Positions 5,926 to 37,640 of a stretch of 64,000 nucleotides of DNA are shown here, piece by piece. Positions within the stretch are counted from its first letter, which is position 1. Every line of letters begins with the position of its first letter. Both the position numbers and the translations under genes were made by a program. Source of the DNA: Bacilli bacterium (lineage in GTDB: Bacteria > Bacillota_I > Bacilli_A > RFN20 > CAG-826). The notes below the pieces were generated by a model. The model did not search any database, was not told where the DNA came from, and was given only the letters and a program-made list of their open reading frames with translations. Location of the stretch: assembly GCA_024408085.1 (NCBI GenBank), contig JAKSVH010000002.1, positions 43,613-107,612 on the forward strand, written 5' to 3'.

Positions 5926-5941
5926 TAGATAGAATATAAAT

Positions 5942-18766: not shown

Positions 18767-19914
18767 GTTAGTTTTTCGGTAGTAAAATTAGCTTCAAAAT
18801 ATTGCTTATTATTAAGACCTAACTGGTCTTTTTCTTTTTGATCCATCACAATGATTTTATTAATAATTTCCCCAATTTCCTGGGCATTTTCCCCTGCAAA
18901 AACCGCACCTTTTGCATTTTCGAGCAATGTTTTGGAGTCTCCTTGAACAACACCAATGATAGGTTTTCCGTACTTCAAATATTGGATGGCTTTATTTGGT
19001 ATTGTCTTACCAACATAACCATCATTTTTAAGAGAAACAATTAAGGCATCTGCATTCGCAAAATATGCTTCTGCTTTTTCAATTGGAAGATTACCGTGGT
19101 ATTCGACCTTATCTCCAAGTCCATCCACCACAATTTGTTTCTCAACTTGTTTAAGTAAACTTCCTGTTCCAAGTAAATGTAATTTAATGTCGTAGCTCTT
19201 AACAAATCTCATTGCTTTTACAAGGGTATCAATCATTTGCATACTTCCAATGTTGCCAGCGTACACTAGATTTGTCTTATTTTGGTATTTAATAGGCTCT
19301 TCTTCTTTAGAAGACTTAATGACTGGTTGATTTACCACATTGAAAACTTTGTCTTCTATATGAAGCTCTTTTTCAAAATATTCTTTAAATGATGGAGATG
19401 AAATTACAATACGATCAAATTTCAAATAAATAGATTTGCTCCACTTATATAAAATCTTGTGTGCAAGTGAGTTTCTTCTAACTTGTCCAGTTACTACTGC
19501 AGCTTCTGGCCAAAGGTCTTGGCAATAAAGAACGCTTGGGACTTTATGTTTCTTTGCATAAAGTAATGCAGGTGCTACTGAAATAATTGGAGAAAGCGAA
19601 ACACCTAAAACAACATCAAATTCTTCTTTGAAGTGTCTTACAAATCTTTTGGCATTTCTATGAAATGATAAATAATTACGAATCAAAGATCTTCTGGAGT
19701 CTTTTCTTGCAACTAATTTAACGCGGTGAACTTTAACACCATTAATTTCTTCATACTTAATGTCTTTGTATTCAGGAAGTATTTCTTTAAAGCCATAATT
19801 TGGTTTACCAGTTAAAACTGTTACTTCATGCCCAAACTTCACTAAAGTTTCCGCAAAATCAGTAACAGAGAATCTCTCTGGATAATAATACTGGCTTACA
19901 AGTAATATTTTCAT
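18727..19914 (-). CDS. glycosyltransferase family 4
   Basis: 395 aa. N-terminal MKILLVSQYYYPE and C-terminal EX7E-like region typical of GT4. 40-nt convergent overlap with the plus-strand GT gene. Confidence 0.75.
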   Translation of the reverse strand: MKILLVSQYYYPERFSVTDFAETLVKFGHEVTVLTGKPNYGFKEILPEYKDIKYEEINGVKVHRVKLVARKDSRRSLIRNYLSFHRNAKRFVRHFKEEFDVVLGVSLSPIISVAPALLYAKKHKVPSVLYCQDLWPEAAVVTGQVRRNSLAHKILYKWSKSIYLKFDRIVISSPSFKEYFEKELHIEDKVFNVVNQPVIKSSKEEEPIKYQNKTNLVYAGNIGSMQMIDTLVKAMRFVKSYDIKLHLLGTGSLLKQVEKQIVVDGLGDKVEYHGNLPIEKAEAYFANADALIVSLKNDGYVGKTIPNKAIQYLKYGKPIIGVVQGDSKTLLENAKGAVFAGENAQEIGEIINKIIVMDQKEKDQLGLNNKQYFEANFTTEKLTQLLLDELMEVKK

Positions 19915-20029: not shown

Positions 20030-23000
20030 TTAAGCGGTTTTTGGAATTCCGTAAGTAATGCTTATGCTAGAAATACGGAATGCACCGGCTGCTACGATTT
20101 TTCCATCTGTAACAACTTTCTTAGCTGCAAAGGAATATGTAAATGGATTAGCAATGCCAATTGAACCACTACCAGCTGTTTTTTCAAAAGAAACATTAGT
20201 AAATGTTGAGTTTTCAAAATTTGAACTGGAATTATTGGTTAATTGAACATCAATAGCCAAAATAACATAGTTTTCGTCAGCTAAATCAAACACAATTTCT
20301 TGACCTTTATAAAGTCTTATTTCAGGTGTAGCTTCACTTCCAATGTATTGTTGATCTGTATTGCCAACAACCGTGTTAGATGAGCCTTTATTGACGGCAA
20401 CACTTACATTTTCGTTTGTCCAAACACAAGAATTGTTTCCTAGTGGATCTGGTGTAATTGTTCCATTAAAGTTAATTGTTTTTGTGACTTGATTGTAATC
20501 ATCCTTATTAAAACCACTACTAGCTTCAACGGTGACTACACAAGTTGCAACTTTGCCATCGACCGTATATGTGATGTTTGCTGTACCAGCTGCAACTGCG
20601 TGAACAACACCATTAGTTACTGTTGCGACTCCTTCTGCATCAGATGCCCAAACTGCTGATTTTGCTTCAGCATCAGCTGGGGAAAATGTTGGAACTAATG
20701 TGACGTCATCATCACCTACTGTCATAGCAAGTTCTGTTTTATCTAAAGTAACACTTTCAACTGCTGGAGCAACATAATCAACAAAACCAAGTTCGATTGA
20801 AGCAAAGTAAATTGTTCCGTTTGTTGCTTTTAAGCTAAAGTATGTTGAACCTGCTGCTGGTTTAATAACGACACTGCCAACAGCGTTAATTGCATATGAA
20901 CTTCCGCTTCCTAATGCAATTTCATTTCCTGTAGGACTTGCTGAATCACCGAAGAACATAGATGCCTTGGCAGAATCTGCAGCAGCCTTAGATATTTCAA
21001 GTTTTACATATTTAATTTCTCTACTAAATGCATAATTGTTGTGAAGTTCACCGCCACCATCCTTCTTCATTTGGATGCTACTATTTCCTTTCATTGCACT
21101 AATGTAAGAGAAGTTACCGTCTGCTGTTGTTGTTTCTGTTGTAACATATGAACCAGTTAATCCTAAACTATCTGGAGTTAAGGTAAATGTATCAACTTCA
21201 GTAACATCAATCTTCTTTTCGGTTGCTGAAACTGTAACGACACATTCAGCATATTTAGTTGTGTCTGCTGCAGAAGTACAAATGACTGTTGCTGTACCAA
21301 CTGCTTTTGGAGTAACTACACCATTTTCTAATGTTATACAATCATCAGAATCAGCTTTAATTGACCAAATTACTTCTTTATTTAAAACTGACGAAGGATT
21401 GATTTCTGGAACTAAAGTAACTGGTTCAGAAGTTGGAGTTAAATCAAGAGTAGTTTTATCTAGTGATACTGATTCAACTGGAATTACATATTCCGGAATT
21501 TCATCATAGACAATCTCAATGTCAGATAAGTTTGTTACTGCATCTTTTGAACCCACAATGTAGAAATATGAACAACCTGCTGGAACTGTGTATACATTAT
21601 CAACAGGATTTAATACATTATCTGTTGTCTTGAGTTCATCGCCAGCATAGACTGTGACAGAACCTGCACTAACACTAAATCTAATTTCAGAAAGACCGGA
21701 AATTGGGGAAACATTCCATAACTTACCTGCGTTCTTTTGGAATTGAATTGTTCCGCTGTTTTTATTAACTTGATATGTTTCAAATAGTAATCCGCTTCCA
21801 TCTGCTGCATATCTAGCAAAGTTGTTCTTATCATATGAACTACCCGGGAAGTCGTTTGTATTAGTAATTGTTGTTTTTGTTAATACTGTGACTTCACAAG
21901 TGTCTGTAAACGAACCATCTGTTGTTGTAACAGTGATTGTTGCTGTGCCTGGTGCAACTGCTGTGATTTCACCATTTTCATCAACTGTGGCAATACTTGT
22001 ATTGTTTGATAAATATGAAACTGACTTATCATATGCATCTGCTGGAGATACTGTAACATCGACAGTTTCTTTATCGCCGGTTGCAAGTGTAATTGAATCT
22101 TTTGCAAATTCAACACCTGTAACTGCAACTTTTGATTCTGAAACATTAATTTCACATGTATCAGTAAATGAACCTTGTGATGTTGTAACTGTAATTGTTG
22201 CTTTTCCAACACCAACAGCTTCAATTTCGCCTGTGTTTGTATCAACAGAAACAATTTCTGGATGATCTGAGGAGAATGTACAGTTTTTATTTGAAGCTGT
22301 TTCAGGCATAACGGTTGCGACTAATGCCCCCGTTTCACCTAATTCCATTGTTAATTCTGACTCGTTAAGAGAAACACCACTTACTTTGGTTACATCAATA
22401 ATATTTACAGAAACTAATGCAAGGTTTTTGGAGTTTGTCTTAGTAAATGCAATTTTTACACCGGAAATTCCTTCACCCGTGATAACAACTGATTTTGTTG
22501 TTGCTAATTCTAATACCTTGTCTAAAGAACCTGCATTTGTAAAGTCTGGGTTAAATGTTGCAGAACTTACAACTTCACCAGCATCATTTAAGGCATAGAC
22601 AGTAACAACGTATTCAGCACTCGTGCTAGTATTTACAATTGAAGTAACATCAACTTGAATTGCGGTCGTATCTTCAAAGAGTTTAATTGATTGTACATAT
22701 TCGTCTTTAGCTCTTAAACCATAAACCTTATCATTTAAATATGCTTCACCAGTACCAGTCCAAACACCATCTGGGAATACAGGGGAATTTGTTTCAGAAT
22801 CCCAAGAGAATGAACCGTTATATGGTAACTCGTGTTTTACAGCCGCTGTAACGGTAACAACACATTCAGCATATTTTGATTCATCATCATCAACCTTAAC
22901 AGTTATTGTTGCTTCGCCAGCACCAACTGCTGTGACTTTACCGTTTTGATCAACGGTTGCAACAGTTTCGTCTGAGGAACTCCATGTGTGTTCTGGATGA

Positions 23001-26000
23001 GTTGCGTCATTTGGTGTGACGGTAGCAACTACTGTTTCTTCGCCACCTTCAACGATGCTGAGTGTTTCCTTATCTAAAGTGATATTTTCAACATCAATAA
23101 TCTTTTCAACAACTGTAACAACACATTTGGCTTCAAATTCTCCATCGGTTGTCTTGACTGTAATGGTTGCTTCACCAGCACTGACTGCTGTGACCTTACC
23201 ATCTACAACTGTTGCGATTGAATCATTTGAAGAAGTCCATGTAACAGTTTTATCGTCTGCATTATCTGGGGATACGGTAGCGATTAATTGCTCGTTTGCG
23301 CCTTCTTGAAGAGTTGTTGTTTCTTTATTTAATGAAACGCCTGTGACGTGCTCAACATATTCATCAAATCCAACAGTAATTGATTTAATATAAATAGCAT
23401 TCTTTGTAGGAGCTAAACTGAAGAAATCAAATCCTTCTTCAGGTGCCATAATAACTATTTTACCTTCAACATTTAAAGGATATTCTGTGTCTTTGCCGAG
23501 GTTAACTGCATTTTCAGTTGGTAATACGCTGTCACCAAATCTTAAATCTGCAGTAGCGTTTTCTGTTGCACCGGATGCGAGATCGATAACAACATATGTG
23601 ATATCTTTGCTAAATCCAAATAAGTTATGTAATTCTGATTTAGGAGTTGTTGAACCACTAATTTGAATATTTCCAGACTTGTCTGCCTTAGCTTGCGTCC
23701 ATGCAAAGTATTCACTTGAATCGCTAGCATAATCTCCTATAAGTCCTAGTGATTCAGCAGTAATTACATATTCGTCCATTGTAGAGACGTCAATAAATCT
23801 TTCTTCTACTGTAACTTCACATTCATCAAATGCAGCAGGATTATCAACGGATTTAACGATAACTTTTGCTGTGCCTGGTTGTAAGCCGGTAACACAACCG
23901 TCTTCATCAACGGAAATGATATCTTCTTTTCCTTCTTCAACACTCCAAATAAGATCTGTAATTGTAGCGTTATCTGGGGACACGGTAGCTGTTAATGTAG
24001 TACAACCACCTTGCAAAATTTCTGTTTTGTGATCTGTTAATTCAACTTTTGTAACAGGAACTTTTGTTGCAGCAACTTTAACTTCACAAGTAGCTGAAAT
24101 TTCTGGATCATCAGTTGCAACTGTAATTATGGCTGTGCCTGGAGCATATGCAGAGATAATGCCATCGGTGCCAACGTCTGCAATTTCAGGATGATCAGAA
24201 CTATATGTGAGTGTTGTGTGTGTTGTGTCGCTTGGATTTAAAGTTGCTTTAAGCATAAAGGATTCTTCAACAACAAGAGATAATGATTCTTTGTTTAATT
24301 GTATTCCTTCAAGTGGAACATTATAATCAACAAAACCGATTTCGATTGAAGAGAAATATGTCGCGCCTTTTGTATTTTTTAAACTGAAGAATGTTGCATC
24401 TTCTGATGGCTTAATAACTACATAGGTGCCCGCTGTTGTTATATCATAGACAGTACCTGATCCCATTGGAATTACATCGCCGGTCGGCATTCTTGAATTA
24501 CCAAAACGCATTTCAATTGTGTTGTTCGCTGAAATGTCATTTCCTACAGCAAGTTTTACATATTTAATAGGTCTACTATAAGCATACTTGTTGTGGAGCT
24601 CTGAGTCTTTAGGGTTGTCTCCAGTGCTATAGTTTCCTTGAATACTTCCGCTCGCGCTATGTTTTGCTAAGTCAGTCCATGCATATTCGTCATTTGAACC
24701 AGATCCATAAGAGCCAAGATTTAATGATTCAGCACCTGCAGTTAAGACAACTTTGTCAACTTCATCAACATCGATGAATTTATTAACAACAGTAACTGTG
24801 CATGATGCGGATAAGCCACTATTTACATTTGAAGCTTTAACAATGACTTCTCCAGCTTTAAGTGCAGTAACTTTTCCATTATCTAGCGATACGATATCTT
24901 CTTCGCCTTCTACACTCCAAACTAATTCAGGATGAGTTGCATCTGCAGGCAAGACAGTTGCGATTAATTGCTTTTCATCATCAAGAGCAAGGGTGATTGC
25001 TTCTTCATCTAATTCGATGCTTGTAACTAATACCTCATTCTCTGTAACGTTTACTGCAATATTTGTATGTTTTGTGCCATCAGCACTTGTAACTGTAAGA
25101 GTTGCACTACCTGCTTTAAGTGCTGTAATTTTACCATTATCAACTGAGATAATTTCTGTGTCTTCTGTTGACCATGTTACTTCTTGAGGGGCCTTGGCTG
25201 GTAAAACACCTGCGGTAAGAGTGATTTCTTCACCTTCAGCCATGTTTAATGACGTGATTTGTGTTTCACCATTCTTAACATATACTGAATCTGGTTCGTA
25301 TGTAGATTTATCGGTTACTACAGATGTTGTTCCAGAACATAATTGTGGTTCACCACCATTATTTCCTACATAACAATTTGTAATTTCAATCTCGCCATCT
25401 AATTTAACGGTATTAATTTCATCAATAGCTGCTTGTGAAACTAATGCTTTCTTCATATAGAATGTGTATGTTTTTTCAAGATTGTCCTTAAAGGCAACAT
25501 TCATTGAATAATTGCCGCTAGTTGCTGTTAATTCGGTTTTCTTAACAACGTTTTTGAAATCAACAAGATTTAAGAAAGCAGCTGTATCCATTTTTTCGCT
25601 GCTATCTATAACTGCTTTATTAACAGTAACTTCATCATCAGAAACTGTAATGTCGTTAATTGAAATATTAACTGTTTTAGCAACGCCACCAGATTTAACA
25701 ACTTGAGATCTCATAGATAATTTTTTGCCAAGTACAACTTTTGTAGATTCGCTCTTAAGTACTACTGTAATTGCATGGTCGCCATCTTGAATAATGGCTT
25801 CCTTGCCCATAACAAAGGTAACACATCCAGAAATATTAAATGAACGTTCTGATGTTTCCCCTTCTTCATGAGACATCGCTTCATTGTAAGCATGGACTAC
25901 ACCATCTGCTGCAGCATTAACTGAAACAACACATGACGCTGTTTTTGAGCTATCTGTAGTTGATGTAACTGTAATTGTTGATGCACCAACACCGACAGCA

Positions 26001-27532
26001 GTTAATTTGCCGGTTTCATCAACCTTAACAATATCTTCTTCACTAGAAGACCACACAACATCTTTAAATGTGGCATTTTCTGGGAAGATAGTTGCGGTTA
26101 ATGATTCTGAAACATCATCAATATCTAATGTCATTGTTGTATTGTTCAATTCGATACGATCAACTGGAACAATTTCACTAACGACAGTGATTTTACATGT
26201 TGCGGTCTTACCGTTAACGGTTGAAGCGGTGACAATTTCTTCGCCTGCCATTAAACCTTTAACTTTACCGTTATCAACACTGACAATACCTTTGTCTTCA
26301 GTTGACCATGTAACTGTTTTATCGATTGCGTATGATGGGAGAACTTCTGAAACAAGAGTAACTTCACCATCAATTTCAATTGTAGCTTCTGATTTATCTA
26401 AAAGAATACCTGTAGCTGGTACTGGTACTGGAGCTTTTGCATAAATATGTGGTTTTGGGTAAGTTTGAGTTGACTTATAACAAGCAAAACGTTCAGAACC
26501 TTGGTTTAAGAATAAAGTATTGTGTTCTGTGTTTGCTGGGTCAATACATGTAATTGTTGCTTCACCATCAACAATCTCAATATTAAATGAGGAGTCTGGT
26601 CCAATAGCATCAACTTCGAGTAATTGATTTTTATCGCTTTTTGCAGCTAAATATTTACCACTAGCTGTTTTAAATGAATATGAACCGTCTTTATTTTTAA
26701 TTGTAAAGAAAGAACCGGAACCCTCTCCTAATAATAATTTATCATTATCGACTGTAGCTGCAATAGATTTGAAGTATGTTGAACTTGAAGCTTTTGTTTG
26801 CTCATGGTCCATTGCAAAATATTCATTGTTATATCTGCCAACAAAATTGACTGTTGCACCATCAAGTACTGGCCCGACATCGACTAATGTAGCATCATCA
26901 CTTGTTTTTGATGGGAATGGTATTACTGGGTCTTCAACTGTAATAGAAATAACCTTTTTTACGTCTGGATTTTTTTCAGAGGTAATTGTAACTTTAGCAG
27001 TACCTGCTCCAACAGCTTCAATTTCGCCGTTTTCATTAATAATTACGACGCTTTCTTTGCTACTGGATAAATTAACTACTTTATCACTAGCTGGAGCTTC
27101 GTTAGGTAAAACATTAACAAGAACCTCTTGTGTATCTCCTACAACCATTGTGATTGAGTCAGATGCAGGTTTAACAAGCTCAATGCCTGTAATTGGAATA
27201 TCTGGTCTTCCTGTACCAACTGCTACAAGACATGGGACGTCATTTGCGTATACCGTGGTTGTACCATTCTTATGTCCGGTAACAACACCATTTTGGTCAA
27301 CGCTAGCAATTGATGCGTCATCTGAACGCCAATTAACTTCAACAGAACAACCTTCCATATTGCTTGATGCAGTTAATTGTTTTGTTTCATTAATCTCAAT
27401 AGTGATTGCTTGGCTATCAAGGATAACTGATGCTTGATCACATTGAGGACCTGGTTCTTTGCCACAGGAGCCTAGTGCTACTGCCGCTGCTGCAGCAAAT
27501 GGAATTAATAAGAGTAACGATTTCTTTTTCAT
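20030..27532 (-). CDS. giant surface lipoprotein (2500 aa) with many Big_2 Ig-like domains and three copies of a novel roughly 150-aa module
   Basis: Signal peptide with lipobox (MKKKSLLLLIPFAAAAAVALGSCG) after the SD AAGGAGAG. The ORF-track start at 27565 is an over-extension. Repeated Big_2 signatures (V.W.S.D..IA.VD..G.VTA...G.A.ITV). Three paralogous modules ELHN-YA(Y/F)S..IKYV...FG(D/N)S..PTG......G..Y.....G..VI.P......FSL.......Y..SIE.GF(V/D)(D/E)Y. Confidence 0.85.
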   Translation of the reverse strand: MKKKSLLLLIPFAAAAAVALGSCGKEPGPQCDQASVILDSQAITIEINETKQLTASSNMEGCSVEVNWRSDDASIASVDQNGVVTGHKNGTTTVYANDVPCLVAVGTGRPDIPITGIELVKPASDSITMVVGDTQEVLVNVLPNEAPASDKVVNLSSSKESVVIINENGEIEAVGAGTAKVTITSEKNPDVKKVISITVEDPVIPFPSKTSDDATLVDVGPVLDGATVNFVGRYNNEYFAMDHEQTKASSSTYFKSIAATVDNDKLLLGEGSGSFFTIKNKDGSYSFKTASGKYLAAKSDKNQLLEVDAIGPDSSFNIEIVDGEATITCIDPANTEHNTLFLNQGSERFACYKSTQTYPKPHIYAKAPVPVPATGILLDKSEATIEIDGEVTLVSEVLPSYAIDKTVTWSTEDKGIVSVDNGKVKGLMAGEEIVTASTVNGKTATCKITVVSEIVPVDRIELNNTTMTLDIDDVSESLTATIFPENATFKDVVWSSSEEDIVKVDETGKLTAVGVGASTITVTSTTDSSKTASCVVSVNAAADGVVHAYNEAMSHEEGETSERSFNISGCVTFVMGKEAIIQDGDHAITVVLKSESTKVVLGKKLSMRSQVVKSGGVAKTVNISINDITVSDDEVTVNKAVIDSSEKMDTAAFLNLVDFKNVVKKTELTATSGNYSMNVAFKDNLEKTYTFYMKKALVSQAAIDEINTVKLDGEIEITNCYVGNNGGEPQLCSGTTSVVTDKSTYEPDSVYVKNGETQITSLNMAEGEEITLTAGVLPAKAPQEVTWSTEDTEIISVDNGKITALKAGSATLTVTSADGTKHTNIAVNVTENEVLVTSIELDEEAITLALDDEKQLIATVLPADATHPELVWSVEGEEDIVSLDNGKVTALKAGEVIVKASNVNSGLSASCTVTVVNKFIDVDEVDKVVLTAGAESLNLGSYGSGSNDEYAWTDLAKHSASGSIQGNYSTGDNPKDSELHNKYAYSRPIKYVKLAVGNDISANNTIEMRFGNSRMPTGDVIPMGSGTVYDITTAGTYVVIKPSEDATFFSLKNTKGATYFSSIEIGFVDYNVPLEGIQLNKESLSLVVEESFMLKATLNPSDTTHTTLTYSSDHPEIADVGTDGIISAYAPGTAIITVATDDPEISATCEVKVAATKVPVTKVELTDHKTEILQGGCTTLTATVSPDNATITDLIWSVEEGKEDIISVDEDGCVTGLQPGTAKVIVKSVDNPAAFDECEVTVEERFIDVSTMDEYVITAESLGLIGDYASDSSEYFAWTQAKADKSGNIQISGSTTPKSELHNLFGFSKDITYVVIDLASGATENATADLRFGDSVLPTENAVNLGKDTEYPLNVEGKIVIMAPEEGFDFFSLAPTKNAIYIKSITVGFDEYVEHVTGVSLNKETTTLQEGANEQLIATVSPDNADDKTVTWTSSNDSIATVVDGKVTAVSAGEATITVKTTDGEFEAKCVVTVVEKIIDVENITLDKETLSIVEGGEETVVATVTPNDATHPEHTWSSSDETVATVDQNGKVTAVGAGEATITVKVDDDESKYAECVVTVTAAVKHELPYNGSFSWDSETNSPVFPDGVWTGTGEAYLNDKVYGLRAKDEYVQSIKLFEDTTAIQVDVTSIVNTSTSAEYVVTVYALNDAGEVVSSATFNPDFTNAGSLDKVLELATTKSVVITGEGISGVKIAFTKTNSKNLALVSVNIIDVTKVSGVSLNESELTMELGETGALVATVMPETASNKNCTFSSDHPEIVSVDTNTGEIEAVGVGKATITVTTSQGSFTDTCEINVSESKVAVTGVEFAKDSITLATGDKETVDVTVSPADAYDKSVSYLSNNTSIATVDENGEITAVAPGTATITVTTTDGSFTDTCEVTVLTKTTITNTNDFPGSSYDKNNFARYAADGSGLLFETYQVNKNSGTIQFQKNAGKLWNVSPISGLSEIRFSVSAGSVTVYAGDELKTTDNVLNPVDNVYTVPAGCSYFYIVGSKDAVTNLSDIEIVYDEIPEYVIPVESVSLDKTTLDLTPTSEPVTLVPEINPSSVLNKEVIWSIKADSDDCITLENGVVTPKAVGTATVICTSAADTTKYAECVVTVSATEKKIDVTEVDTFTLTPDSLGLTGSYVTTETTTADGNFSYISAMKGNSSIQMKKDGGGELHNNYAFSREIKYVKLEISKAAADSAKASMFFGDSASPTGNEIALGSGSSYAINAVGSVVIKPAAGSTYFSLKATNGTIYFASIELGFVDYVAPAVESVTLDKTELAMTVGDDDVTLVPTFSPADAEAKSAVWASDAEGVATVTNGVVHAVAAGTANITYTVDGKVATCVVTVEASSGFNKDDYNQVTKTINFNGTITPDPLGNNSCVWTNENVSVAVNKGSSNTVVGNTDQQYIGSEATPEIRLYKGQEIVFDLADENYVILAIDVQLTNNSSSNFENSTFTNVSFEKTAGSGSIGIANPFTYSFAAKKVVTDGKIVAAGAFRISSISITYGIPKTA

Positions 27533-27562
27533 TTTTCTCTCCTTTATTTCTTGATGAGTTAA

Positions 27563-27642
27563 CAAAAAATGTCCGTAATAAACACGCGCACTAAATGCAC
27601 TTTGTGTTTACGACGAACATTGTTTCGTAAATCATAAGGTTA
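27563..27642 (-). promoter_or_regulatory. conserved 5' leader of giant gene 1, paralogous to 31963-32043
   Basis: About 80 nt. Shares AACCUUAUGAUUUACGAAACA (22/22) and CGUCGUAAACAC (12/12) with the leader of gene 2. Contains a U6 tract 32-37 nt upstream of the ATG. A TATAAT at 27649-27654 lies just upstream, which places the conserved block inside the transcript. Confidence 0.5.
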
Positions 27643-27726
27643 TTTAAATTATAAGATATAAATCTTAGAAAGTGAAATGTCTTTTGATTAATTTTATTTT
27701 AGTGGGCATACATGCGAATTTTTTGC

Positions 27727-27774
27727 ACAAAAAAAGATCAACTTGCGAGGTTAATCGTAGAGGTTGATCTTTGA
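27727..27774. terminator. conserved hairpin element (copy B), 3' of giant lipoprotein gene 2
   Basis: GCACAAAAAAAGATCAAC-TTGCGAGGTTAATCGTAGAG-GTTGATCTTT. It differs from copy A by one inserted G in the loop and one substitution in the flank. Confidence 0.55.
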
Positions 27775-27779
27775 TTTAA

Positions 27780-30700
27780 CTAAAATTCAACTTTAATACC
27801 GTTAACAATCATTCTCTTATTTGAGCCTGTGTTGCTATTGGTTAAATTGAAGATAACTCTGAAATATACACCATCCCAATCACTTTCTGCAGGCTTTTCA
27901 AATGAAATATAGCCATTATCAACATAGTCAGCAGTTAATGACTCAATTGCATTCTTGTCAGAAGCCGCATCGCTTGCTGAACTATAGATTTTTAAAGTAA
28001 CAGAATTTACAGTAATTTCAGATTGTTTTGCGCCTGTACTAATTGAGAAAACAGAAACTTCATTATCAAAAGCGGTTTGTGAACATATATATCTATCACC
28101 AATAGCGCCTTTTCCGCCAAGTCCAACATAGTCACCAAGAGTAGTGTTGCCATTAACAATCCAATCTATACCATTGAGTTTACTATAAGTATAGGTTCCA
28201 GTGTAACTTGAGTTGCCACCAGCACCACCTTCGGTTGAAACTTTATAGAAATTGCCTTCGTATGGGTCAACAACAACAGAGCCTTCATCTACAAATGTCA
28301 CTTGAACTTCCGTAGGGCCGTTTACCTTAAATGAATATGTTCCTGAGCTTTCAGTAACTGTAGCACCAGTAGACACCGCTACTGATTTGACTTTGTATCC
28401 GCTATCTGGGGTAACTGTAAATGAATAAGTTGCTCTATTTAAAGCTGTGGCTGTTGGCAAGTTAACTGTTCCGTGTTCAGTGGCCTTAGCGGTAATAGCT
28501 TGAGCTTCTTGAGTTAATGTTTTAATGTAACTTGTTCCTTGTGTTGTTTCTACCCCATATTTTGAGTCGTTTTTAACTTTACCACAAGCTAAAACAGTAT
28601 CACCAATTTGGACATCATCAACTGATGTAAATTTACCAGATGTTGATCCATTCATCATTCTGAAACAGATAAAATCTGTATTATCAATCTTAAATGAGAA
28701 ATTACCAAATTCTGTGCTAAACGCTTCAGTAAATGAAGTAACTGTTCCTCTAACCCAAACTGCTTCATCACTTGTTTCGTCAGAAGACAATGATTGTCCG
28801 TAAGCTAAGGCTTCTGCTCCAGTAAATGGATTGTCTTCAGTACCCTTTTCCTCGCCTTGTGGATTAACGGTGATAGCGTATGTATCTGATTTTCCTTCGT
28901 ATGTAACTGTGACTGTATCATCTTCAGTAGTTAATGCGACTGATGGAGAAACAGAATATTCAGCTGCTTGAAGAACTTTATCTTCACCGCCATTTGTGTA
29001 ATGAGCAGTAACAACTAAGCCATCTTTAACAACTAATTCACCTTCAGTGTATGTTGTTTTTGCTTTTGATGCATCAACTGAAATTGACTCTAATTCTGGT
29101 TGTGGAGCTGGTTCTGATAAAACAGAGACTTCACAATAATCTGATTTTTCTGTATTAAATGTAGAAGTTGCAACAACTTTTGCGCTACCTTCTGCAACAG
29201 CTGTAACAACACCATTATCAACTGTGACACATCCTGCTGGGTCTGCATCAACAACTGACCAAGTAACCGTTTCTTCTGCACCACCAACTGCGTCAACAGC
29301 TGCTGATAATGTAACAGATGTTGTTTCTGTAAGATCTAAGCTTGCAGTCTTTGGAGAAACTGTAACACCGTTAACTGCTGGTTCAGCTGGTTCCGCTTTT
29401 TCCCATTGAATTTCAACGGATTTAATATAAGCAGATTTTGCAGCACTTGCGGTTGTATTAATTGTAATTGTTGAACCTGATGCAGAACCTTCGAATGTTA
29501 CGTCAACATGGTTGGCTTTTTCCATTGTAAAGGCTGAGCCAAAATCACTTGCTCCAACTTTAGCAGAAACTATGACATCACTTGCTGTTGAGTTAGTTGA
29601 AGCATCAACAATAATTTTCTTAATAACTAATTCTGATGGGAAGTTAGAAATTGTAACAACACCTGGATTTTTATTCCATTGAATACCTCTATCACCTTCA
29701 TATCCTTGAATTGTGCCTGAGGCAGCCATTGATGCTCCGGTTTTGCCAGATTCTTCAAATGCGTCTTTTGCAGTAAATGTAAATTTACTTGCTAATACTT
29801 CTGGTGCTTCTGAAACTGTAATATCAACAGATGCTGTTTTTCCGTTGTAAGAAACAACAACTTTGTCATCGCTTAATTCTAATGCACCATCTGGTGAATA
29901 AGTATAATTTGTAATAACTGCTGGATCGCCTACATTGTAATTTGCTTTGACAACCATGCCTGCTGGATCAAATGATTCGCCTTCAACATAATTAACCTTT
30001 GATGGTTGTGTATCAATAACAATTGATTGCAATTCTCTTGCTGTAACAGTGATGTTGACATCAACTGACTTGCCGCCATATGAAACGGTGACTTTATTAT
30101 CAGTTGGTGCTAAAGCACCTGCAGGTGAAATTGTCCAACCAGATGTAATGTCTTCTTCGCTACTATCAGAATAAACTGCATGAAGAATCAATCCAGCTGC
30201 ATTGAATGATTCACCTTCGTTATAAGCAAGTTTTGATGGTTGAGTTTTTACTGTTAATGTTGTTAATTCTTTTTGTGGTTCAGAACCTTCAAAATTGAAT
30301 AACAATTCCTCTACATAAGAAGCAAAGTTTGTGGAAGCAAGGCTAAAGTACTTGGCTCCAGCTGATGGTGTAACATCAAATGTGCCTTTTGCGTTGATTG
30401 GGTAGCTTGTTTCACTTCCCAAGACAATAGTTTCTCCTAATGCTGCTGTTGCACCAAAACAGAAATCTAATGTTGCATCATTACCGGCTTCTTTAGAAAT
30501 TTTAACTGTAACTTTTGTTATTGTTTTGCTAAATGGAATGATATTTGAAACTGTTCCAGATTTGCTTTTAAATTGCATGCTTGGTTTGTTGTATGTACCA
30601 ATATCCTTGTATGAGAAACCATTATTTGTTCCTTCATAATAACCATTTTCTTTTTGATCAAGGCCAAGAGCAGCTAATCCGACTGAATATTCTTTATCTA

Positions 30701-31931
30701 CTGTAATTTCTCCAGTAGGAACTGGTTTTGCATTAACTGTAACATCAACTGGTTTGGTTGCTGTTTGTCCACCAAATGTTGCACTAAATGTAACACTTGT
30801 ATCACCAAGTGCTGCTTTTTCCTTGTTTGGTGTAATTGCAACTGTTACTGTTTCAGTTGTATCGTCTGTGTATGTTGCAACAACAGATAAACCTGCTGCA
30901 GAATAGGCTTCGCCTTCTTCATAAACAGTCTTTGTTGCTGTTCCTGCAATTGCAAGTGATTTAACTTCTTTAGTTGGTGTTGGTTCGCTTGCTGTTAATT
31001 CAGAACCATCAACAACAATAAGTTGTCTTCCATCACGATCGCCAACAACAACTTTATTTAAAACTACGGTTACGCCTTCGGTTGCTGCATTCAAGAATGT
31101 GGTGTAATCGTTAACGATTCCGCCCTTGAAGAATACAGGAACATTTTCTCCAGCGATTGCGATTGTTAATGTTGTATCGTTGTTCTTTGTATTGACTTCC
31201 TTTTTAATAACAACGCCTTGTGCGTTTGCTAAAACGTTTGTTTTAAGAGCATCTAATGCTGCTTTACTAGCAACGTTTGCTGGTTGAGGAACAACGCCAT
31301 CACCATCAGCTTCAACTTTAATATCGCCTGATGTTTCAACTAAGCCTTTGTAGTTACAAAGTGCTGCTGTAACTTTGACTTTCTTACCAATTACAAGTTT
31401 TGGTACGTCTGCTTCTGCTGGGTGATATAAATCAATACCATATTCTCCGTCTTGAATGAAGTATTCACCAGAGCAATTTCTAATTGCAACTACAGTTGCG
31501 CTGAATGTCATTGGTTCTGTAGCACCTGAAGTTTTTGCAAATCCAGCTTCATAAGCTTCTTTTAATCCGCTTACGACTGGTGGGGTTGGTGCATCATCGT
31601 CAACTTTCAAGTTGAATGAGCCTGATCCATAGTTGATAACAACATCGCCTGCTTTGACACCTGTGACTAAACCGTTGGTATCAACAGTTGCGATTGTTGA
31701 ATCATTTGAACCCCAACTAAAGGTACAACCAGAGATATTGACCTCTGCTGTTAATTGCAATGTCTGTCCTGGTTTGATTGTTGTGACGCCACCCGCAGAA
31801 GTAATACTTACTGTAGCTGACTCACATTGCGGATCTGGGGTTGGTCCTGGTGGGTTTGGGTTTGCTCTTTCACAACCCGCCAAACCTGCAGCCGCAAATG
31901 GAATGATTAAGAGTAATGCTTTTCTTTTCAT
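27780..31931 (-). CDS. giant surface lipoprotein (1383 aa) with Big_2 domains, paralogous to the 2500-aa gene
   Basis: Related lipoprotein signal peptide (MKRKALLLIIPFAAAGLAGC) after the SD AAGGAGGA. Repeated Big_2 domains. A module related to the 150-aa repeat (…LGSETSYPINAKGTFDVTPSAGAKYFSLAST…). Confidence 0.85.
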   Translation of the reverse strand: MKRKALLLIIPFAAAGLAGCERANPNPPGPTPDPQCESATVSITSAGGVTTIKPGQTLQLTAEVNISGCTFSWGSNDSTIATVDTNGLVTGVKAGDVVINYGSGSFNLKVDDDAPTPPVVSGLKEAYEAGFAKTSGATEPMTFSATVVAIRNCSGEYFIQDGEYGIDLYHPAEADVPKLVIGKKVKVTAALCNYKGLVETSGDIKVEADGDGVVPQPANVASKAALDALKTNVLANAQGVVIKKEVNTKNNDTTLTIAIAGENVPVFFKGGIVNDYTTFLNAATEGVTVVLNKVVVGDRDGRQLIVVDGSELTASEPTPTKEVKSLAIAGTATKTVYEEGEAYSAAGLSVVATYTDDTTETVTVAITPNKEKAALGDTSVTFSATFGGQTATKPVDVTVNAKPVPTGEITVDKEYSVGLAALGLDQKENGYYEGTNNGFSYKDIGTYNKPSMQFKSKSGTVSNIIPFSKTITKVTVKISKEAGNDATLDFCFGATAALGETIVLGSETSYPINAKGTFDVTPSAGAKYFSLASTNFASYVEELLFNFEGSEPQKELTTLTVKTQPSKLAYNEGESFNAAGLILHAVYSDSSEEDITSGWTISPAGALAPTDNKVTVSYGGKSVDVNITVTARELQSIVIDTQPSKVNYVEGESFDPAGMVVKANYNVGDPAVITNYTYSPDGALELSDDKVVVSYNGKTASVDITVSEAPEVLASKFTFTAKDAFEESGKTGASMAASGTIQGYEGDRGIQWNKNPGVVTISNFPSELVIKKIIVDASTNSTASDVIVSAKVGASDFGSAFTMEKANHVDVTFEGSASGSTITINTTASAAKSAYIKSVEIQWEKAEPAEPAVNGVTVSPKTASLDLTETTSVTLSAAVDAVGGAEETVTWSVVDADPAGCVTVDNGVVTAVAEGSAKVVATSTFNTEKSDYCEVSVLSEPAPQPELESISVDASKAKTTYTEGELVVKDGLVVTAHYTNGGEDKVLQAAEYSVSPSVALTTEDDTVTVTYEGKSDTYAITVNPQGEEKGTEDNPFTGAEALAYGQSLSSDETSDEAVWVRGTVTSFTEAFSTEFGNFSFKIDNTDFICFRMMNGSTSGKFTSVDDVQIGDTVLACGKVKNDSKYGVETTQGTSYIKTLTQEAQAITAKATEHGTVNLPTATALNRATYSFTVTPDSGYKVKSVAVSTGATVTESSGTYSFKVNGPTEVQVTFVDEGSVVVDPYEGNFYKVSTEGGAGGNSSYTGTYTYSKLNGIDWIVNGNTTLGDYVGLGGKGAIGDRYICSQTAFDNEVSVFSISTGAKQSEITVNSVTLKIYSSASDAASDKNAIESLTADYVDNGYISFEKPAESDWDGVYFRVIFNLTNSNTGSNKRMIVNGIKVEF

Positions 31932-31962
31932 TTATACTCCTCCTTTTGAGACTTAGACATAC

Positions 31963-32043
31963 AAAAAAATCCGTATGAACACTAATACGCAATTTTGCGC
32001 TTGGTGTTTACGACGGAGTTTGTTTCGTAAATCATAAGGTTGC
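31963..32043 (-). promoter_or_regulatory. conserved 5' leader of giant gene 2, paralogous to 27563-27642
   Basis: See 27563-27642. The U7 tract lies 33-39 nt upstream of the ATG. Confidence 0.5.
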
Positions 32044-32085
32044 TTATATTTTAATATAATATTTCAACCTTGTATAGACTAAATT

Positions 32086-32427
32086 TTATTTAGTTATTAA
32101 AAATGCGATGAGTCCTACTAAAAATGTTATGATCCCACTTGCTAAAAGTGGATAGAAAATAGCCCAAGCTTTATTTACTACTTCATCAGGAAGTGGATTG
32201 TCCCAATCATGTAGCTTGTGTCTTTTCCAACCTCTATACAAGTCTTGGATTATAAATCCAACTAGTGAGCAAAAAACACCACCAAAGATCATAAAATACC
32301 ATGAATATTTAAGTGGCCAATTTGGTTCTCCAACTAAGTAGAAAATAGCGAGCCCAACGCCAACTAAAACGCCTACTCCTAACAAGATGAATAAGTAGTT
32401 GTACCATTTCTTTGCAGCGTTCTTCAT
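32086..32427 (-). CDS. small 3-TM membrane protein
   Basis: 113 aa, hydrophobic. Confidence 0.4.
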   Translation of the reverse strand: MKNAAKKWYNYLFILLGVGVLVGVGLAIFYLVGEPNWPLKYSWYFMIFGGVFCSLVGFIIQDLYRGWKRHKLHDWDNPLPDEVVNKAWAIFYPLLASGIITFLVGLIAFLITK

Positions 32428-33387: not shown

Positions 33388-34192
33388 CCCAAGTAGAATT
33401 ACCGAAGAAGACCTCGTAAAGCATAAGTGCTAAGTGGTCTTTTTCTTTATCGGTTCTATCGTCAGTTAAATTGTATAAAGCAAGTGTTGGATCAATACAT
33501 TCCCATCTAATCTCATATGCGACTGTGTCTTCAAGTCTAAATTTGTTATCAACCTTTGTTTGATCAATATAGAACGAAACAAGATTTGTTCTTGATTGGA
33601 AATCTGTATTTACTAAAACATCATTTAATGTATAAATGTGTTTATCGTACATTCCTCCTGCACTTTGAGTGTAGAAACAAATAGTAAAGTTGAAGTAAAT
33701 TTCCTTCATTAAAGGATTTTCAAGAGTTGTGCCGCCTCTACAAGAGAATGCAAAGTAATCGCAATGTTTCATTGTAAGAGGAAGTTTAGCTGCAAAGCCA
33801 ACTTTATCTAACTGAGCTCTGCTCTTTTGATATAAGCCTTCACAACGAACTCTTCCATCATAGAGTTTTGAAATAGCGCCTTGTTTAAATCCTTCATCCA
33901 CAAGTGCAAGATTGTTGTTATAACTCCAAAGTTTTTCTTTTTCAGCGTATTCCCATTGAAGCCCACCTACATCTTCAGCGTGAAGATATTTCAAGCCATC
34001 ATGAGAATGTAACTCCAAAGGAGTTTCTTCGATTTCTTTCGCAATTTGGAAATTTCTTGTGTCTTCCTTCAAATAATAATTTGAATAAAAATATGGAGAT
34101 TCATAAGCACCACGCTTATAAAGTTTGTCGGTCTTGCTACAACCACATAAAGTGATTGCTATAAGTGGAAGTAAAATATGTTTCATTTTCAT
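33380..34192 (-). CDS. lipoprotein, unknown function
   Basis: MKMKHILLPLIAITLCGCSK lipobox. 270 aa. Confidence 0.5.
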   Translation of the reverse strand: MKMKHILLPLIAITLCGCSKTDKLYKRGAYESPYFYSNYYLKEDTRNFQIAKEIEETPLELHSHDGLKYLHAEDVGGLQWEYAEKEKLWSYNNNLALVDEGFKQGAISKLYDGRVRCEGLYQKSRAQLDKVGFAAKLPLTMKHCDYFAFSCRGGTTLENPLMKEIYFNFTICFYTQSAGGMYDKHIYTLNDVLVNTDFQSRTNLVSFYIDQTKVDNKFRLEDTVAYEIRWECIDPTLALYNLTDDRTDKEKDHLALMLYEVFFGNSTWVK

Positions 34193-35580
34193 AAGCTAAC
34201 ATCCTCCACTTTTTCTGCAACTTGAGCTTCTTTGTTTGGAACAAAATAAGTAAAACCAAACAAGAATAAAGCTAGCATAAATGGAACACTTCTTAAGAAG
34301 GCACCATAAATTTCTGAATGATGAGGTTCAACTTTAATGTTGTAACCAAATGATGCATAAAGCATGAATGCAACAAGCATCATAACAACAGCATTCTTTA
34401 GGAATGCTGAATCTTTTGCGTCTCTAATATAACGAACCACAAAAACGAACATTGCAGCGAAGAATCCTAATACAAGGAATGCTCCAATTAAACCAACTTC
34501 TTTGATTATTTCATATTCAAAGATAAGTGTTGGTTCATAAACAATTGCAGCTAATCCAGCTTCTCCAATTAGTGGAGCAGAAGCATGATTAATATCAAAT
34601 CCAAACAATGTAAATGGTAAACCATTACTGTCTTTTGCAAATGCACCAATCAATGTATTTGAGGCTGGCCTCATAACAAAGTTGTCTCTAAGCAATCTAT
34701 TCAAGATTCCTGGGAACTTAAATCCAATTCCTGCATTGATAATTGTGAGCAAATAAAAGATAACTCCAGCGCCTACAATTACAACAACACATATGGAAAG
34801 AATATTAACAACAAGCTTCTTTTCTTTAAGGAACTTGTACACAAATGCAAAGATTGAAGCAATTACCAAGAAGATTAAAGCTCTCCAATTTGGGACTAAA
34901 AGAATTGATGCTAAACCAACTCCTCCAATAACTGCAGAGCAAATAAATAAGTTTCTGTTTTCTTTTACTTTTATAAATAAAAGTGCTGGCAAAAATACAG
35001 CGCAAAGAATTGCAAAGAATCCACCATATTCAACTGAGACTTCAGTAATTCTAAATCCCATCAACCAACCCATCTCAGTTGTTACATCATAGGCTGTTCC
35101 TTCATAGAAGTAGATTGGTTTTGCTCTATGGATCATTGAATAGAAAGGTCCATATTGGAACAATGTGATAATTGCTCCCACAAATGTTATTGCCGCTAAA
35201 CCAAAACCAATCGCAATAACAACATTCTCCATTTTCATGTTTCCAAGTCTTCTCGCAAAGAAACCTAATGAGAAGAATGCTGGAAGTGCAAAGAATGTTG
35301 CAATATTGCTAAGCATTGAAACTTGATGGGAGAATCCACCAAATGCAGCAATTCCAGAAATAATAAATAAGCCAGCAACCATTGGTGCTAACTTAATAAA
35401 ATCTTTTTTGTCATTGTTGGTGAAAAACGCAAAAACAAAAGCACAAATTGAGAGTACTGCTGTGATTAAATAGAAGACTTCATTGATGTTTGCAAATGTA
35501 AAAGAAACCAATGCCATGATTTCTAAAATTAGAAAGAAGACAATTGATTTGTATTGCTTGAAGAAGCCTTTAGCGTTCAT
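34189..35580 (-). CDS. large polytopic membrane protein (10 or more TM), possibly a Wzy/ligase-like polymer-handling protein
   Basis: 463 aa, very hydrophobic. 4-nt overlap with the downstream lipoprotein gene. Confidence 0.45.
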   Translation of the reverse strand: MNAKGFFKQYKSIVFFLILEIMALVSFTFANINEVFYLITAVLSICAFVFAFFTNNDKKDFIKLAPMVAGLFIISGIAAFGGFSHQVSMLSNIATFFALPAFFSLGFFARRLGNMKMENVVIAIGFGLAAITFVGAIITLFQYGPFYSMIHRAKPIYFYEGTAYDVTTEMGWLMGFRITEVSVEYGGFFAILCAVFLPALLFIKVKENRNLFICSAVIGGVGLASILLVPNWRALIFLVIASIFAFVYKFLKEKKLVVNILSICVVVIVGAGVIFYLLTIINAGIGFKFPGILNRLLRDNFVMRPASNTLIGAFAKDSNGLPFTLFGFDINHASAPLIGEAGLAAIVYEPTLIFEYEIIKEVGLIGAFLVLGFFAAMFVFVVRYIRDAKDSAFLKNAVVMMLVAFMLYASFGYNIKVEPHHSEIYGAFLRSVPFMLALFLFGFTYFVPNKEAQVAEKVEDVSL

Positions 35581-35593
35581 AGGTCTATTATAC

Positions 35594-36082
35594 TCACTTA
35601 TGGTAGGTTTCGTTATTCAAAATTTTAAATGCTCTATAAATTTGCTCCAACAAAATGAGTCTTGTCATCTGGTGCAAATATGTGAGTTTTGACAGAGATA
35701 TTGAGGAATTGCAGCGTTTTTTAAGGTTTTCAGAGAGTCCATACGAACCACCGATAACGAAAGAAATTGATGATCCGCCTTCTACAAATTTTTGTTGAAT
35801 GAATTCTGCAAATTCTTCTGATGTTGGTTCCTTTTTGTTGAGGTCTAATCCAATAAGGTAATCGTTTTTGACAAGTTTTAAAACGCGGTCACCTTCTTCA
35901 TTTTTTGCCTTTGTGATATCAAATTCATTTGGGTTGTCTTTTACCTTTGAATCTGCAACTTCAATAATTTCTGTTTTAGCGTATGCAGAAAGACGTTTAA
36001 TGTATTCAGCAATTCCGTCTTTCAGATATTGTTCTTTAATTTTTCCAATGCAATAAATTTTGATATTCATATTATTTTTCAA
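35594..36082 (-). CDS. rlmH: 23S rRNA (pseudouridine1915-N3)-methyltransferase
   Basis: 162 aa SPOUT protein (MNIKIYCIGKIKEQYL...). YbeA/RlmH family. Confidence 0.85.
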   Translation of the reverse strand: MKNNMNIKIYCIGKIKEQYLKDGIAEYIKRLSAYAKTEIIEVADSKVKDNPNEFDITKAKNEEGDRVLKLVKNDYLIGLDLNKKEPTSEEFAEFIQQKFVEGGSSISFVIGGSYGLSENLKKRCNSSISLSKLTYLHQMTRLILLEQIYRAFKILNNETYHK

Positions 36083-37076: not shown

Positions 37077-37109
37077 AATTAATATAAATATTACACTATT
37101 CATGATAAA

Positions 37110-37140
37110 ATAAAAACTCCCAAATGGGAGTATTATTTTC
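37110..37140 (-). terminator. rho-independent terminator of ssrA
   Basis: The minus strand reads ACUCCC-AUUU-GGGAGU followed by UUUUUAUUUUAU. Confidence 0.6.
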
Positions 37141-37142
37141 AT

Positions 37143-37537
37143 TGGTGGAGTCGGCGGGAATTGCACCCGTGTCCAGAGAGGGCCCCACAGTAACGTCTAC
37201 AGCTTAGACGATATTTGTAATTTAACGAAGCATCGCATATCGTAGTTATCTTCGCGAGACTTATTGGATTTCGGTGAACTTTAGCAAGTCAACTATGTCT
37301 TCCTATCCTTTTGGTATGACACCGTACCTAGACGTGAAAGGAATAAAACTCTAGGGAGTGCTCTGTCCGGCGAACTATGCGTCGGTCTCTATGTCGAGTA
37401 GCTTATGCTAAGCAGAGAGATTGTGCTCTTGGAGCACGCATATAACTGTTGTCAGTTATTTTGTTTTGGTATTTGTGGTTACCAGCCAGCTGCAGTCACT
37501 GCCAGGCAATCGACCCTGTCGAAACTAAGTCGACCCC
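37143..37537 (-). ncRNA. ssrA: transfer-messenger RNA (tmRNA, SsrA)
   Basis: The minus strand begins GGGGUCGACUUAGUUUCGACAGGG (the acceptor-arm 5' consensus GGGG...GAUUCGACGGG). It ends GGACACGGGUGCAAUUCCCGCCGACUCCACCA (T-arm GGUUCGAAUCC-like sequence plus CCA). About 395 nt. Confidence 0.85.
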
Positions 37538-37640
37538 ATTTGCGAGAAGTATAATATCATACGTAATTAGCAAAATAAATATTCTTTTAGAAATTTATGA
37601 TTTTAATTGTGAAAAAAGTTTGTTATTATATACCTCGCTT

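Follow-up and report, generated by a model that had tools for sequence, protein, structure and literature searches.

A conserved leader with a small open reading frame and a predicted terminator precedes giant lipoprotein genes of uncultured gut Bacilli

Two tandem lipoprotein genes and their shared leader

The 64,000-nucleotide (nt) stretch analysed here, called the window throughout (contig JAKSVH010000002.1, Bacilli bacterium, RFN20/CAG-826 lineage), carries two tandem lipoprotein genes on the minus strand, termed gene 1 and gene 2 (Table 1), each of which lies behind a short leader. Both leaders contain the exact blocks AACCUUAUGAUUUACGAAACA and CGUCGUAAACAC, followed by a run of six (U6, gene 1) or seven (U7, gene 2) uridines. 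Besides these shared segments we found a predicted intrinsic terminator and a conserved small open reading frame (ORF) that reaches into its hairpin, two elements that had been overlooked in an earlier sequence-only reading of the locus. The regulatory role which that reading had assigned to the leader is rated likely, and we propose below that it may take the form of attenuation.

The protein encoded by gene 2 is identical to the NCBI entry MCQ2801250.1, from a Bacilli bacterium metagenome-assembled genome (MAG); an exact-protein lookup of the same protein returned no match. The products of gene 1 and gene 2 are 45% identical in their first 100 residues and 28-37% identical in other parts, and are judged from their sequences to be distant paralogues only.

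The sequence-only reading had described the segment as a conserved transcribed 5' leader shared by both genes, and this description holds, with the leader starting at the predicted +1. The segment AACCTTATGATTTACGAAACA has two exact copies in the window (27621-27641 and 32021-32041), where none is expected in shuffled sequences even with 3 mismatches allowed, and CGTCGTAAACAC likewise has two (27604-27615 and 32004-32015) against 0.11 expected. The gap between the two blocks is 5 nt in both leaders (AUGUU in gene 1, AACUC in gene 2), and both U-runs end 31 nt 5' of the lipoprotein ATG (27532 and 31931). Outside these parts the two copies have diverged in their promoter and Shine-Dalgarno (SD) regions. 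The promoters differ as had been noted, TTCACT-17-TATAAT standing before gene 1 and TATACA-17-TAAAAT before gene 2; the TATAAT of gene 1 is indeed present, its coordinates having been placed one base off. Leaders of the gene 1 type and of the gene 2 type were each recovered from other genomes with the shared blocks unchanged. Because the promoters and SD regions have diverged, the proteins are only 45% identical and the leaders recur in related genomes, conservation of the leader is more than the trace of a recent duplication, which had been offered as the neutral explanation should the U-run show no length heterogeneity and the leader be confined to the two paralogues.

Table 1. Coordinates of the features in the window, with the properties read or predicted for each.
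Feature	Position	Strand	Properties
Lipoprotein gene 1	20030-27532	minus	2500 residues, lipobox LGSC, 13 Big_2 domains
SD of gene 1 (AAGGAGAG)	27537-27544	minus	read from sequence
U6 tail of predicted gene 1 leader terminator	27564-27569	minus	U6 in 3/3 gene-1-type leaders
Predicted gene 1 leader terminator hairpin	27570-27619	minus	22 base pairs, -24.1 kcal/mol, z = -6.2, 0/200 shuffles as stable
Gene 1 leader small ORF (MIYETMFVVNTKCI and stop)	27591-27635	minus	14 codons; UAG in terminator apical loop
Weak 5' hairpin of gene 1 leader	27608-27631	minus	UUUACGA (27625-27631) with UCGUAAA (27608-27614); 3' arm is part of terminator 5' arm
Gene 1 predicted +1	A at 27641	minus	from -10 box
Gene 1 -10 box TATAAT	27648-27653	minus	12 nt 5' of small-ORF ATG
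Palindrome TAAGAT-N4-ATCTTA, candidate operator	27652-27667	no strand	perfect, 16 base pairs; between gene 1 -35 and -10, overlaps -10
Gene 1 -35-like box TTCACT	27671-27676	minus	consensus scan, 10/12 matches, 17-nt spacer; kept in L001, L005
Gene 2 3' terminator (AAAGAUCAAC...GUUGAUCUUU, then U7)	27738-27783	minus	splits the two transcription units; kept in L005, L007
Lipoprotein gene 2	27780-31931	minus	1383 residues, lipobox LAGC, Big_2 and Big_3 domains
U7 tail of predicted gene 2 leader terminator	31963-31969	minus	U7 in 5/5 gene-2-type leaders
Predicted gene 2 leader terminator hairpin	31970-32017	minus	17 base pairs, -16.6 kcal/mol, z = -3.8, 0/200 shuffles
Gene 2 leader small ORF (MIYETNSVVNTKRKIAY and stop)	31982-32035	minus	17 codons; UAG at start of terminator 3' arm
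Gene 2 predicted +1	A at 32041	minus	from -10 box
Gene 2 promoter TATACA-17-TAAAAT	32048-32076	minus	-10 at 32048-32053, 12 nt 5' of small-ORF ATG
SD-less ORF, N-terminus MMKKVIIIGAGPIGL	11232-12119	plus	TATAAT-11/12 nt-ATG
SD-less ORF, glycosyltransferase	18727-19914	minus	TATAAT-11/12 nt-ATG
ORF	34189-35580	minus	TATAAT-6 nt-ATG
SD-less ORF, GdpP-like	41669-43672	minus	TATAAT-11/12 nt-ATG
SD-less ORF, N-terminus MKLIVGLGNPGKEYA	57439-58005	minus	TATAAT-11/12 nt-ATG

Homologous leaders in related genomes

Loci and matches outside the window carry L numbers. A two-hairpin-arm pattern scan of species-representative genomes yielded one related MAG (L001); three further matches of the same scan (L002-L004) were rejected as chance matches in unrelated contexts. 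Further contigs were reached via homologues of gene 2 and of a neighbouring 113-residue membrane protein, and a metagenome scan with the latter gave one new leader (L013) and one leaderless locus (L014). The resulting set comprises 14 leaders of 7 sequence types from the RFN20/CAG-826 lineage of uncultured gut Bacilli, namely the gene 1 type (window, L001, L005), the gene 2 type (window, L001, L005, L006, L007), L008, L009/L010, L013, L034 and L035. One homologue of the 113-residue protein is named by NCBI as coming from Candidatus Fiminaster equi, and the genus Candidatus Fiminaster has been placed in order RFN20, family CAG-826, of mammalian guts (PMC8957277).

All 14 leaders precede genes for immunoglobulin (Ig)-like lipoproteins in a common neighbourhood with a TupA-like ATP-grasp gene, the 113-residue membrane protein and glycosyltransferases. 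Loci that carry a homologue of the 113-residue protein followed by an S8 peptidase (L015-L018), none (L024-L027) or SBP_bac_5 (L028-L033) have no leader. Since the leader is missing where the downstream gene differs, the element travels with the Ig-like lipoprotein genes and not with the neighbouring gene.

Searched with a covariance model of the leader (R1), neither the window nor 244 kb of related loci yielded another copy, and a degenerate leader pattern gave only chance matches inside coding regions on viral contigs. The only Rfam 15 match above its gathering score in the whole window is the transfer-messenger RNA (tmRNA), and a search of 27400-32300 at E <= 10 returned noise only, none reaching half its gathering score, in agreement with the statement of the sequence-only reading that no known riboswitch or leader fits. 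The leader family is previously undescribed; the class of mechanism that we propose for it is already known.

Two other loci of the collection bear on the spread of the element. In a more distant lineage (L011/L012), two Big_3/Big_2 lipoprotein genes lack the leader and share another motif, GCGCAC(A/G)GGTGTAT, about 50-60 nt 5' of the start codon (~880-940 and ~5930-5960). Upstream of the SBP_bac_5 lipoprotein gene in L028-L031 (~2845-2965 in L028 coordinates), TATAATAATTTAATTACAACAATTTTCGGCG is similar to the first part of the L009-type leader (TATAATAATTTCACAAGTATGATTTTCGAAC); as it has neither the ATG nor the terminator, it may be a decayed or repurposed relative.

The leader ends in a predicted intrinsic terminator

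Folding of the two window leaders gave hairpins that end directly at the U-run. The gene 1 hairpin is built of a lower stem AUGUUCGU/ACGGACAU, a middle stem GUAAACAC/GUGUUUAU and an apical stem GUGCAU/GUGCGC, and that of gene 2 of the stems UCCGU/ACGGA, GU/AU, AACAC/GUGUU and an apical GCGCA/UGCGU. The 12-nt shared block CGUCGUAAACAC forms the core of the 5' arm. As the U-run stands directly 3' of a hairpin of 17-22 base pairs, it is, according to the folds, the tail of a predicted intrinsic terminator. The same arrangement was found in 14 of 14 leaders, with hairpins of -12 to -25 kcal/mol ending at a run of U5-U7. The geometry is fixed as well: the U-run begins 72-74 nt after position ATG-8 in every leader, about 73-75 nt 3' of the predicted +1, with the -10 box about 90 nt 5' of it, and is followed after 31-45 nt, including the SD, by the lipoprotein ATG.

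The stems differ in sequence between the types while their pairing is kept, as in CCGUCGU..ACGG, CCCGGUC..GACCGGG, UCCCAC.UC..GAG.GGGA, CCCAU..AUGGG and UCCUAU..AUAGGA. RNAalifold on a MAFFT alignment yielded no consensus structure because bulges shift the register between types. The comparison was therefore made with the stated structure, the covariance model R1 and a position-anchored pair table, and rests on alignment A4 and the pair table, as alignment A5 includes 5 reverse-strand matches. The pair table contains the lower-stem exchanges GC/CG, UA/CG and CG/AU. In alignment A4 the stated structure pairs 84% of the cells compared to 31-49% with slid partners; four pairs are changed on both sides, and the covariation score was reached by 0 of 500 shuffles. 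These compensatory changes point to selection for the terminator hairpin.

The position of the hairpin also bears on its function. Gene 2 has its own 3' terminator, which is followed by the gene 1 promoter, so that termination of the upstream gene does not depend on the leader hairpin. On the other side, the segment of about 31 nt after the U-run, which includes the SD, leaves no room for a further promoter, and transcription of the lipoprotein gene must therefore pass the leader terminator. Each lipoprotein transcript would thus have to be a product of read-through, which makes the leader an attenuator by definition.

The length of the U-run is constant within each paralogue type (Table 1), and it stayed fixed over a distance in which the downstream proteins diverged to 46-55% identity. 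The leaders L009 and L010, which come from different samples, both have U6.

Two further observations concern the folding of the leader. L009 (5881-5963) and L010 (1272-1354), which precede an identical lipoprotein, differ by one G>A change in the 3' arm of the terminator (AUGGGA > AUGGAA) that weakens the hairpin from -16.1 to -12.2 kcal/mol. A long-range pairing between the 5' end and the spacer, hinted at by the minimum free energy (MFE) fold of the full leader, was rejected, as it is no better than that of shuffled spacers (p = 0.04-0.58).

A weak 5' hairpin is not the conserved core of the element

The half-sites UUUACG/CGUAAA had been taken in the sequence-only reading to form a hairpin. 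This hairpin can form, with 7 base pairs (UUUACGA/UCGUAAA); however, it is weak and is not conserved across the family. The pairing measures about -4.4 kcal/mol in the leaders that share those arms, and the fold of the gene 1 leader prefers a different 5' structure of -5.6 kcal/mol. Of the covariation analysis which that reading had suggested, the terminator is the part that covaries: the UUUACGA/UCGUAAA hairpin, for which 111 of 500 shuffles score as well, is near-invariant and hence gives no informative covariation. In the window type, L008, L034 and L035 the hairpin and the terminator overlap, whereas in L009, L010 and L013 the pairs at the centre of the hairpin are disrupted and another 5' hairpin, ACAAGU/ACUUGU, encloses the AUG without overlapping the terminator. 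The UUUACGA/UCGUAAA hairpin does not make up the conserved core of the element. Since its 3' arm is embedded in the terminator 5' arm, it could act as a weak antiterminator or as a pause hairpin.

A conserved small ORF runs into the terminator

An ATG inside the first shared block is invariant, and the frame that it opens extends over 13-17 codons in all seven types. The -10 box (TATAAT or TAAAAT) is located 12 nt 5' of this ATG in 13 of the 14 leaders and 13 nt in L034, and in every leader an A, 6-7 nt 5' of the ATG, is the predicted +1. The small ORF spans the terminator 5' arm, and its stop codon lies inside the hairpin in 14 of 14 leaders, 12-23 nt 5' of the U-run and either within the apical loop or immediately 3' of the apical hairpin. 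Tandem repeats are absent from the small ORF, and all leaders keep the same frame.

The encoded peptides are alike, namely MIYETMFVVNTKCI, MIYETNSVVNTKRKIAY (with variants), MIYEVVPVVNTDAIKA, MIYEFIPLVNTKCI, MDYELTPLVNAKCIRA, MIFELVPFINLIV and MIFELVLLKNLEA. They follow the pattern M-I/D-Y/F-E-x-x-P-Φ-V/I-N and vary in length and sequence past residue 11. Synonymous changes are found between the types (GTA>GTG, AAC>AAT, ACC>ACT/ACA), and the replacements are conservative (Y/F, V/L/F, V/I). In a randomisation test, the substitutions in frame 0 keep amino-acid similarity above random placement at p = 0.003-0.05 in 5 of 11 pairs, which are non-independent and drawn from the 7 types; frames 1 and 2 never reached p < 0.05. 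Some codons of the small ORF are rare in this genome (TCC 0.06, CGC 0.05, GCG 0.04). This signal was dropped and no inference was drawn from it, since the rare codons are the G/C positions required by the hairpin.

A proposed ribosome-dependent attenuator

With a terminator architecture that is conserved and covaries, a conserved small ORF, a fixed geometry and a constant U-run length as observations, we propose with moderate confidence that a ribosome-dependent attenuator precedes each giant lipoprotein gene, in which translation of the small ORF blocks the terminator. Transcription would start about 6 nt 5' of the small ORF. In the default state, with no ribosome on the leader, the hairpin would form and stop transcription after about 78 nt. 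Translation of the small ORF would bring a ribosome over the 5' arm of the hairpin, and a ribosome at the stop codon, which is inside the hairpin, would also cover part of the 3' arm. With the terminator blocked, RNA polymerase would go on to transcribe the lipoprotein gene. The weak 5' hairpin could serve as a pause site for the polymerase or as a transient competitor of the terminator. The steps that we infer in this cycle are translation of the small ORF, read-through as its effect and the sensing of a signal.

Several points weigh against this proposal. The small ORF has no SD and sits behind a leader predicted to be 6 nt long, the transcription start itself being a prediction from the -10 box. 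Codons 1-4 show no synonymous variation (always ATT/GAT, TAC/TTC and GAA), and their conservation could act on the RNA or DNA instead of the peptide. Codons 7-11 also form the terminator 5' arm, so that the constraints on peptide and RNA are inseparable there. The coding test is modest, its pairs being non-independent and its 7 types belonging to one family-level clade. The seven peptide types contain no repeated codon class and no run of regulatory codons of the trp/his type, and the peptides have no known arrest motif. In addition, RNA polymerase of Bacillus subtilis often outruns the ribosomes; coupling of transcription and translation may be loose in Bacilli, and the ribosome would then need a pause of the polymerase.

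With regard to the missing SD, the window contains ordinary genes of similar layout, among them four SD-less ORFs with a TATAAT box 11 or 12 nt 5' of the ATG and another SD-less ORF with the box at 6 nt (Table 1). Beside these, a TAGAAT is found 6 nt 5' of the ATG of the plus-strand ORF 5942-6418 and 8 nt 5' of that of the minus-strand ORF 32086-32427. Messenger RNAs that are leaderless or have a leader of 4-6 nt appear to be common in this genome. Because ordinary genes share the SD-less TATAAT-11/12 nt-ATG layout, very short leaders seem to be a normal way of starting translation here, and the small ORF could plausibly be translated without an SD in this organism. Such genes also matter for gene calling and for the discovery of small ORFs in this lineage.

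Alternative explanations

The main rival is a factor-dependent attenuator, in which a trans-acting factor or protein on the 5' box AUGAUUU(A/U)CGAA would set the read-through and the small ORF would be incidental. Such a factor would act by stabilising or blocking the weak 5' hairpin, similar to the antiterminators of the BglG/LicT type at ribonucleic antiterminator (RAT) hairpins. We consider this possible, although on the unlikely side. It would account for the conservation of the 5' box as nucleotides, with no synonymous variation, and for the absence of an SD before the small ORF, and in the window type, L008, L034 and L035 the UUUACGA/UCGUAAA pairing has the geometry of an antiterminator. 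However, the centre of this hairpin is lost in L009, L010 and L013, and the ACAAGU/ACUUGU that replaces it is off the terminator. At about -4.4 kcal/mol the 5' hairpin would also have to compete with terminators of -16 to -25 kcal/mol. A Pfam scan of 20 neighbouring proteins, limited to the locus, revealed no RNA-binding antiterminator domain. Furthermore, the substitution pattern favours frame 0, and the open frame and the position of its stop are retained in all types.

The small ORF might encode a regulatory arrest peptide; stalling near codon 10 would place the ribosome exactly on the terminator 5' arm. We rate this as unlikely. Stalling would answer a cue, for instance a metabolite, a compound from the host or the diet, or the state of a translation factor, and if this were true, expression of giant Ig-like adhesin lipoproteins would be made conditional by an SD-less sensor ORF next to the 5' end.

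That the hairpin and U-run form an unconditional element, either a leaky damper or a 5' stabiliser of very long mRNAs, seems quite improbable. Such a constitutive leader is consistent with the fact that no sensor was identified and with MFE folds of the full leader that extend the hairpin toward the 5' end; yet shuffled spacers pair with the 5' end just as well, as described above. A damper would also leave the invariant ATG, the fixed distance from the -10 box to the ATG, the peptide-like pattern and the fixed stop unexplained.

A small-molecule riboswitch, in which the 5' 40 nt together with the hairpin would be an aptamer governing the terminator, is highly doubtful. The terminator would serve as the expression platform and the sequence 5' of it is conserved, but no Rfam family was matched even at E <= 10, only about 25 nt lie 5' of the terminator, and the secondary structure in that part is not conserved between the clades.

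Finally, the sequence-only reading had regarded the U-run as a slipped-strand tract whose U6/U7 length changes could switch lipoprotein expression by phase variation. Homopolymer-driven lipoprotein switching is known in Mollicutes, and the two paralogues differ by one U. This attractive reading is hardly credible and is corrected here, as the run is fixed in length within each type across the genomes sampled (U6 in 3/3, U7 in 5/5, and U6 in both L009 and L010), is a terminator tail that falls in no promoter spacer or reading frame and, at 6-7 nt, is short for efficient slippage.

Comparison with known systems

The closest likeness to the proposed ribosome-dependent attenuator was found in the pil1 locus of Streptococcus gallolyticus, where leader peptides with a stop codon in or near a premature terminator hairpin raise transcription of the adhesin genes (Danne et al. 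2014, PMC3894217) and the ribosome was shown experimentally to keep the hairpin from forming (PMC3894217). In both cases an operon or gene for surface adhesins or lipoproteins of Bacilli is preceded by a leader ORF close to the promoter and by a stem-loop terminator, and the stop position associated with high expression in pil1, in or near the hairpin, resembles the one found inside the hairpin in all of our leaders. In contrast, the pil1 leader has 22 GCAGA repeats in a 38-codon ORF with a recognisable ribosome-binding site and switches by frameshifts that follow from repeat number, whereas the leaders described here have 13-17 codons, no repeats and no SD. Because the frame of the small ORF is fixed and contains no repeats, any regulation must act on translation and not through slippage of the DNA.

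In mycobacteria, ribosome-dependent sensing has been described for SD-less small ORFs at the 5' end of mRNAs (Canestrari et al., bioRxiv 10.1101/834739). The small ORF of our leaders is likewise SD-less, located at the very 5' end and a possible sensor for downstream genes. Unlike it, the mycobacterial ORFs start exactly at the 5' end, contain polycysteine tracts and act on translation by controlling a downstream ribosome-binding site; in our case a leader of about 6 nt is predicted, no codon run is present and the controlled structure is a transcription terminator.

The classical ribosome-mediated attenuators are the trp, his and pheA leaders and pyrBI of E. coli, and in pyrBI a ribosome close behind the polymerase physically blocks the attenuator hairpin. 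Similar to these systems, the leader peptide ORF overlaps the structures that decide on terminator formation. The differences are that the leaders of the giant lipoprotein genes have no regulatory codon run, no conserved antiterminator of the 2:3 type and no SD, and that the downstream genes encode surface lipoproteins instead of biosynthetic enzymes.

The ermK, vmlR, bmrB-bmrCD and msrD leaders of Firmicutes are antibiotic-inducible leader-peptide attenuators in which a stalled ribosome remodels the terminator. Our leader peptides resemble theirs in being short, conserved to about codon 10 and variable thereafter, but they show no similarity to known arrest peptides, and the genes downstream are not resistance genes. 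With regard to homopolymers, the poly-A tracts in the vlp promoters of Mycoplasma hyorhinis drive phase variation of Mollicute lipoprotein genes and, like the U-run, lie 5' of variable surface-lipoprotein genes in a wall-reduced low-GC lineage. However, tracts of the vlp type are found between -35 and -10 or in reading frames and vary in length between clones, whereas the U-run follows a hairpin in a transcribed leader and is constant in length.

The hosts of these leaders are uncultured Bacilli with reduced genomes (RFN20/CAG-826, relatives of Candidatus Fiminaster) from herbivore and other mammalian guts. Genes for Ig-domain surface lipoproteins, which are likely adhesins or antigens, are the largest genes of these Bacilli, and a conserved attenuator would be the first hint as to how such giant genes are switched. 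At about 110 nt, the attenuator is a compact and testable element. If the small ORF acts as a sensor, leader-peptide attenuation would reach the control of surface proteins beyond the single case of pil1, extending from the attenuators of biosynthesis and antibiotic resistance.

Further features of the locus

The perfect palindrome between the -35 and -10 boxes of gene 1 is a candidate operator, which would give a second layer of control. The same AAGAT-N4-ATCTTATAAT was also found before leaders in L001, L005, L006, L007 (twice) and L034, and the palindrome is missing from the gene 2 promoter of the window. Promoters of the gene-2-type leader differ between genomes: in the window, L001 and L005 the leader is preceded by TATACA-17-TAAAAT without the palindrome, and in L006 (3530-3575) and L007 (6815-6865) by a gene-1-like TTCACA...TATAAT promoter with it. 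The gene-2-type leader itself is unchanged from +1 onward despite these differing promoters.

The tmRNA gene of the window is located at 37143-37537 on the minus strand (Rfam RF00023, 81.9 bits). It is overlapped by the mechanically called ORFs 36072-37166 and 37449-38594, whose ends are probably over-extended or spurious.

The 3' terminator of gene 2 consists of a 10-base-pair stem with an unusually large loop of 20 nt (CUCUACGAUUAACCUCGCAA). It is conserved nearly base for base in L005 and L007, which suggests that the sequence of the loop may matter.

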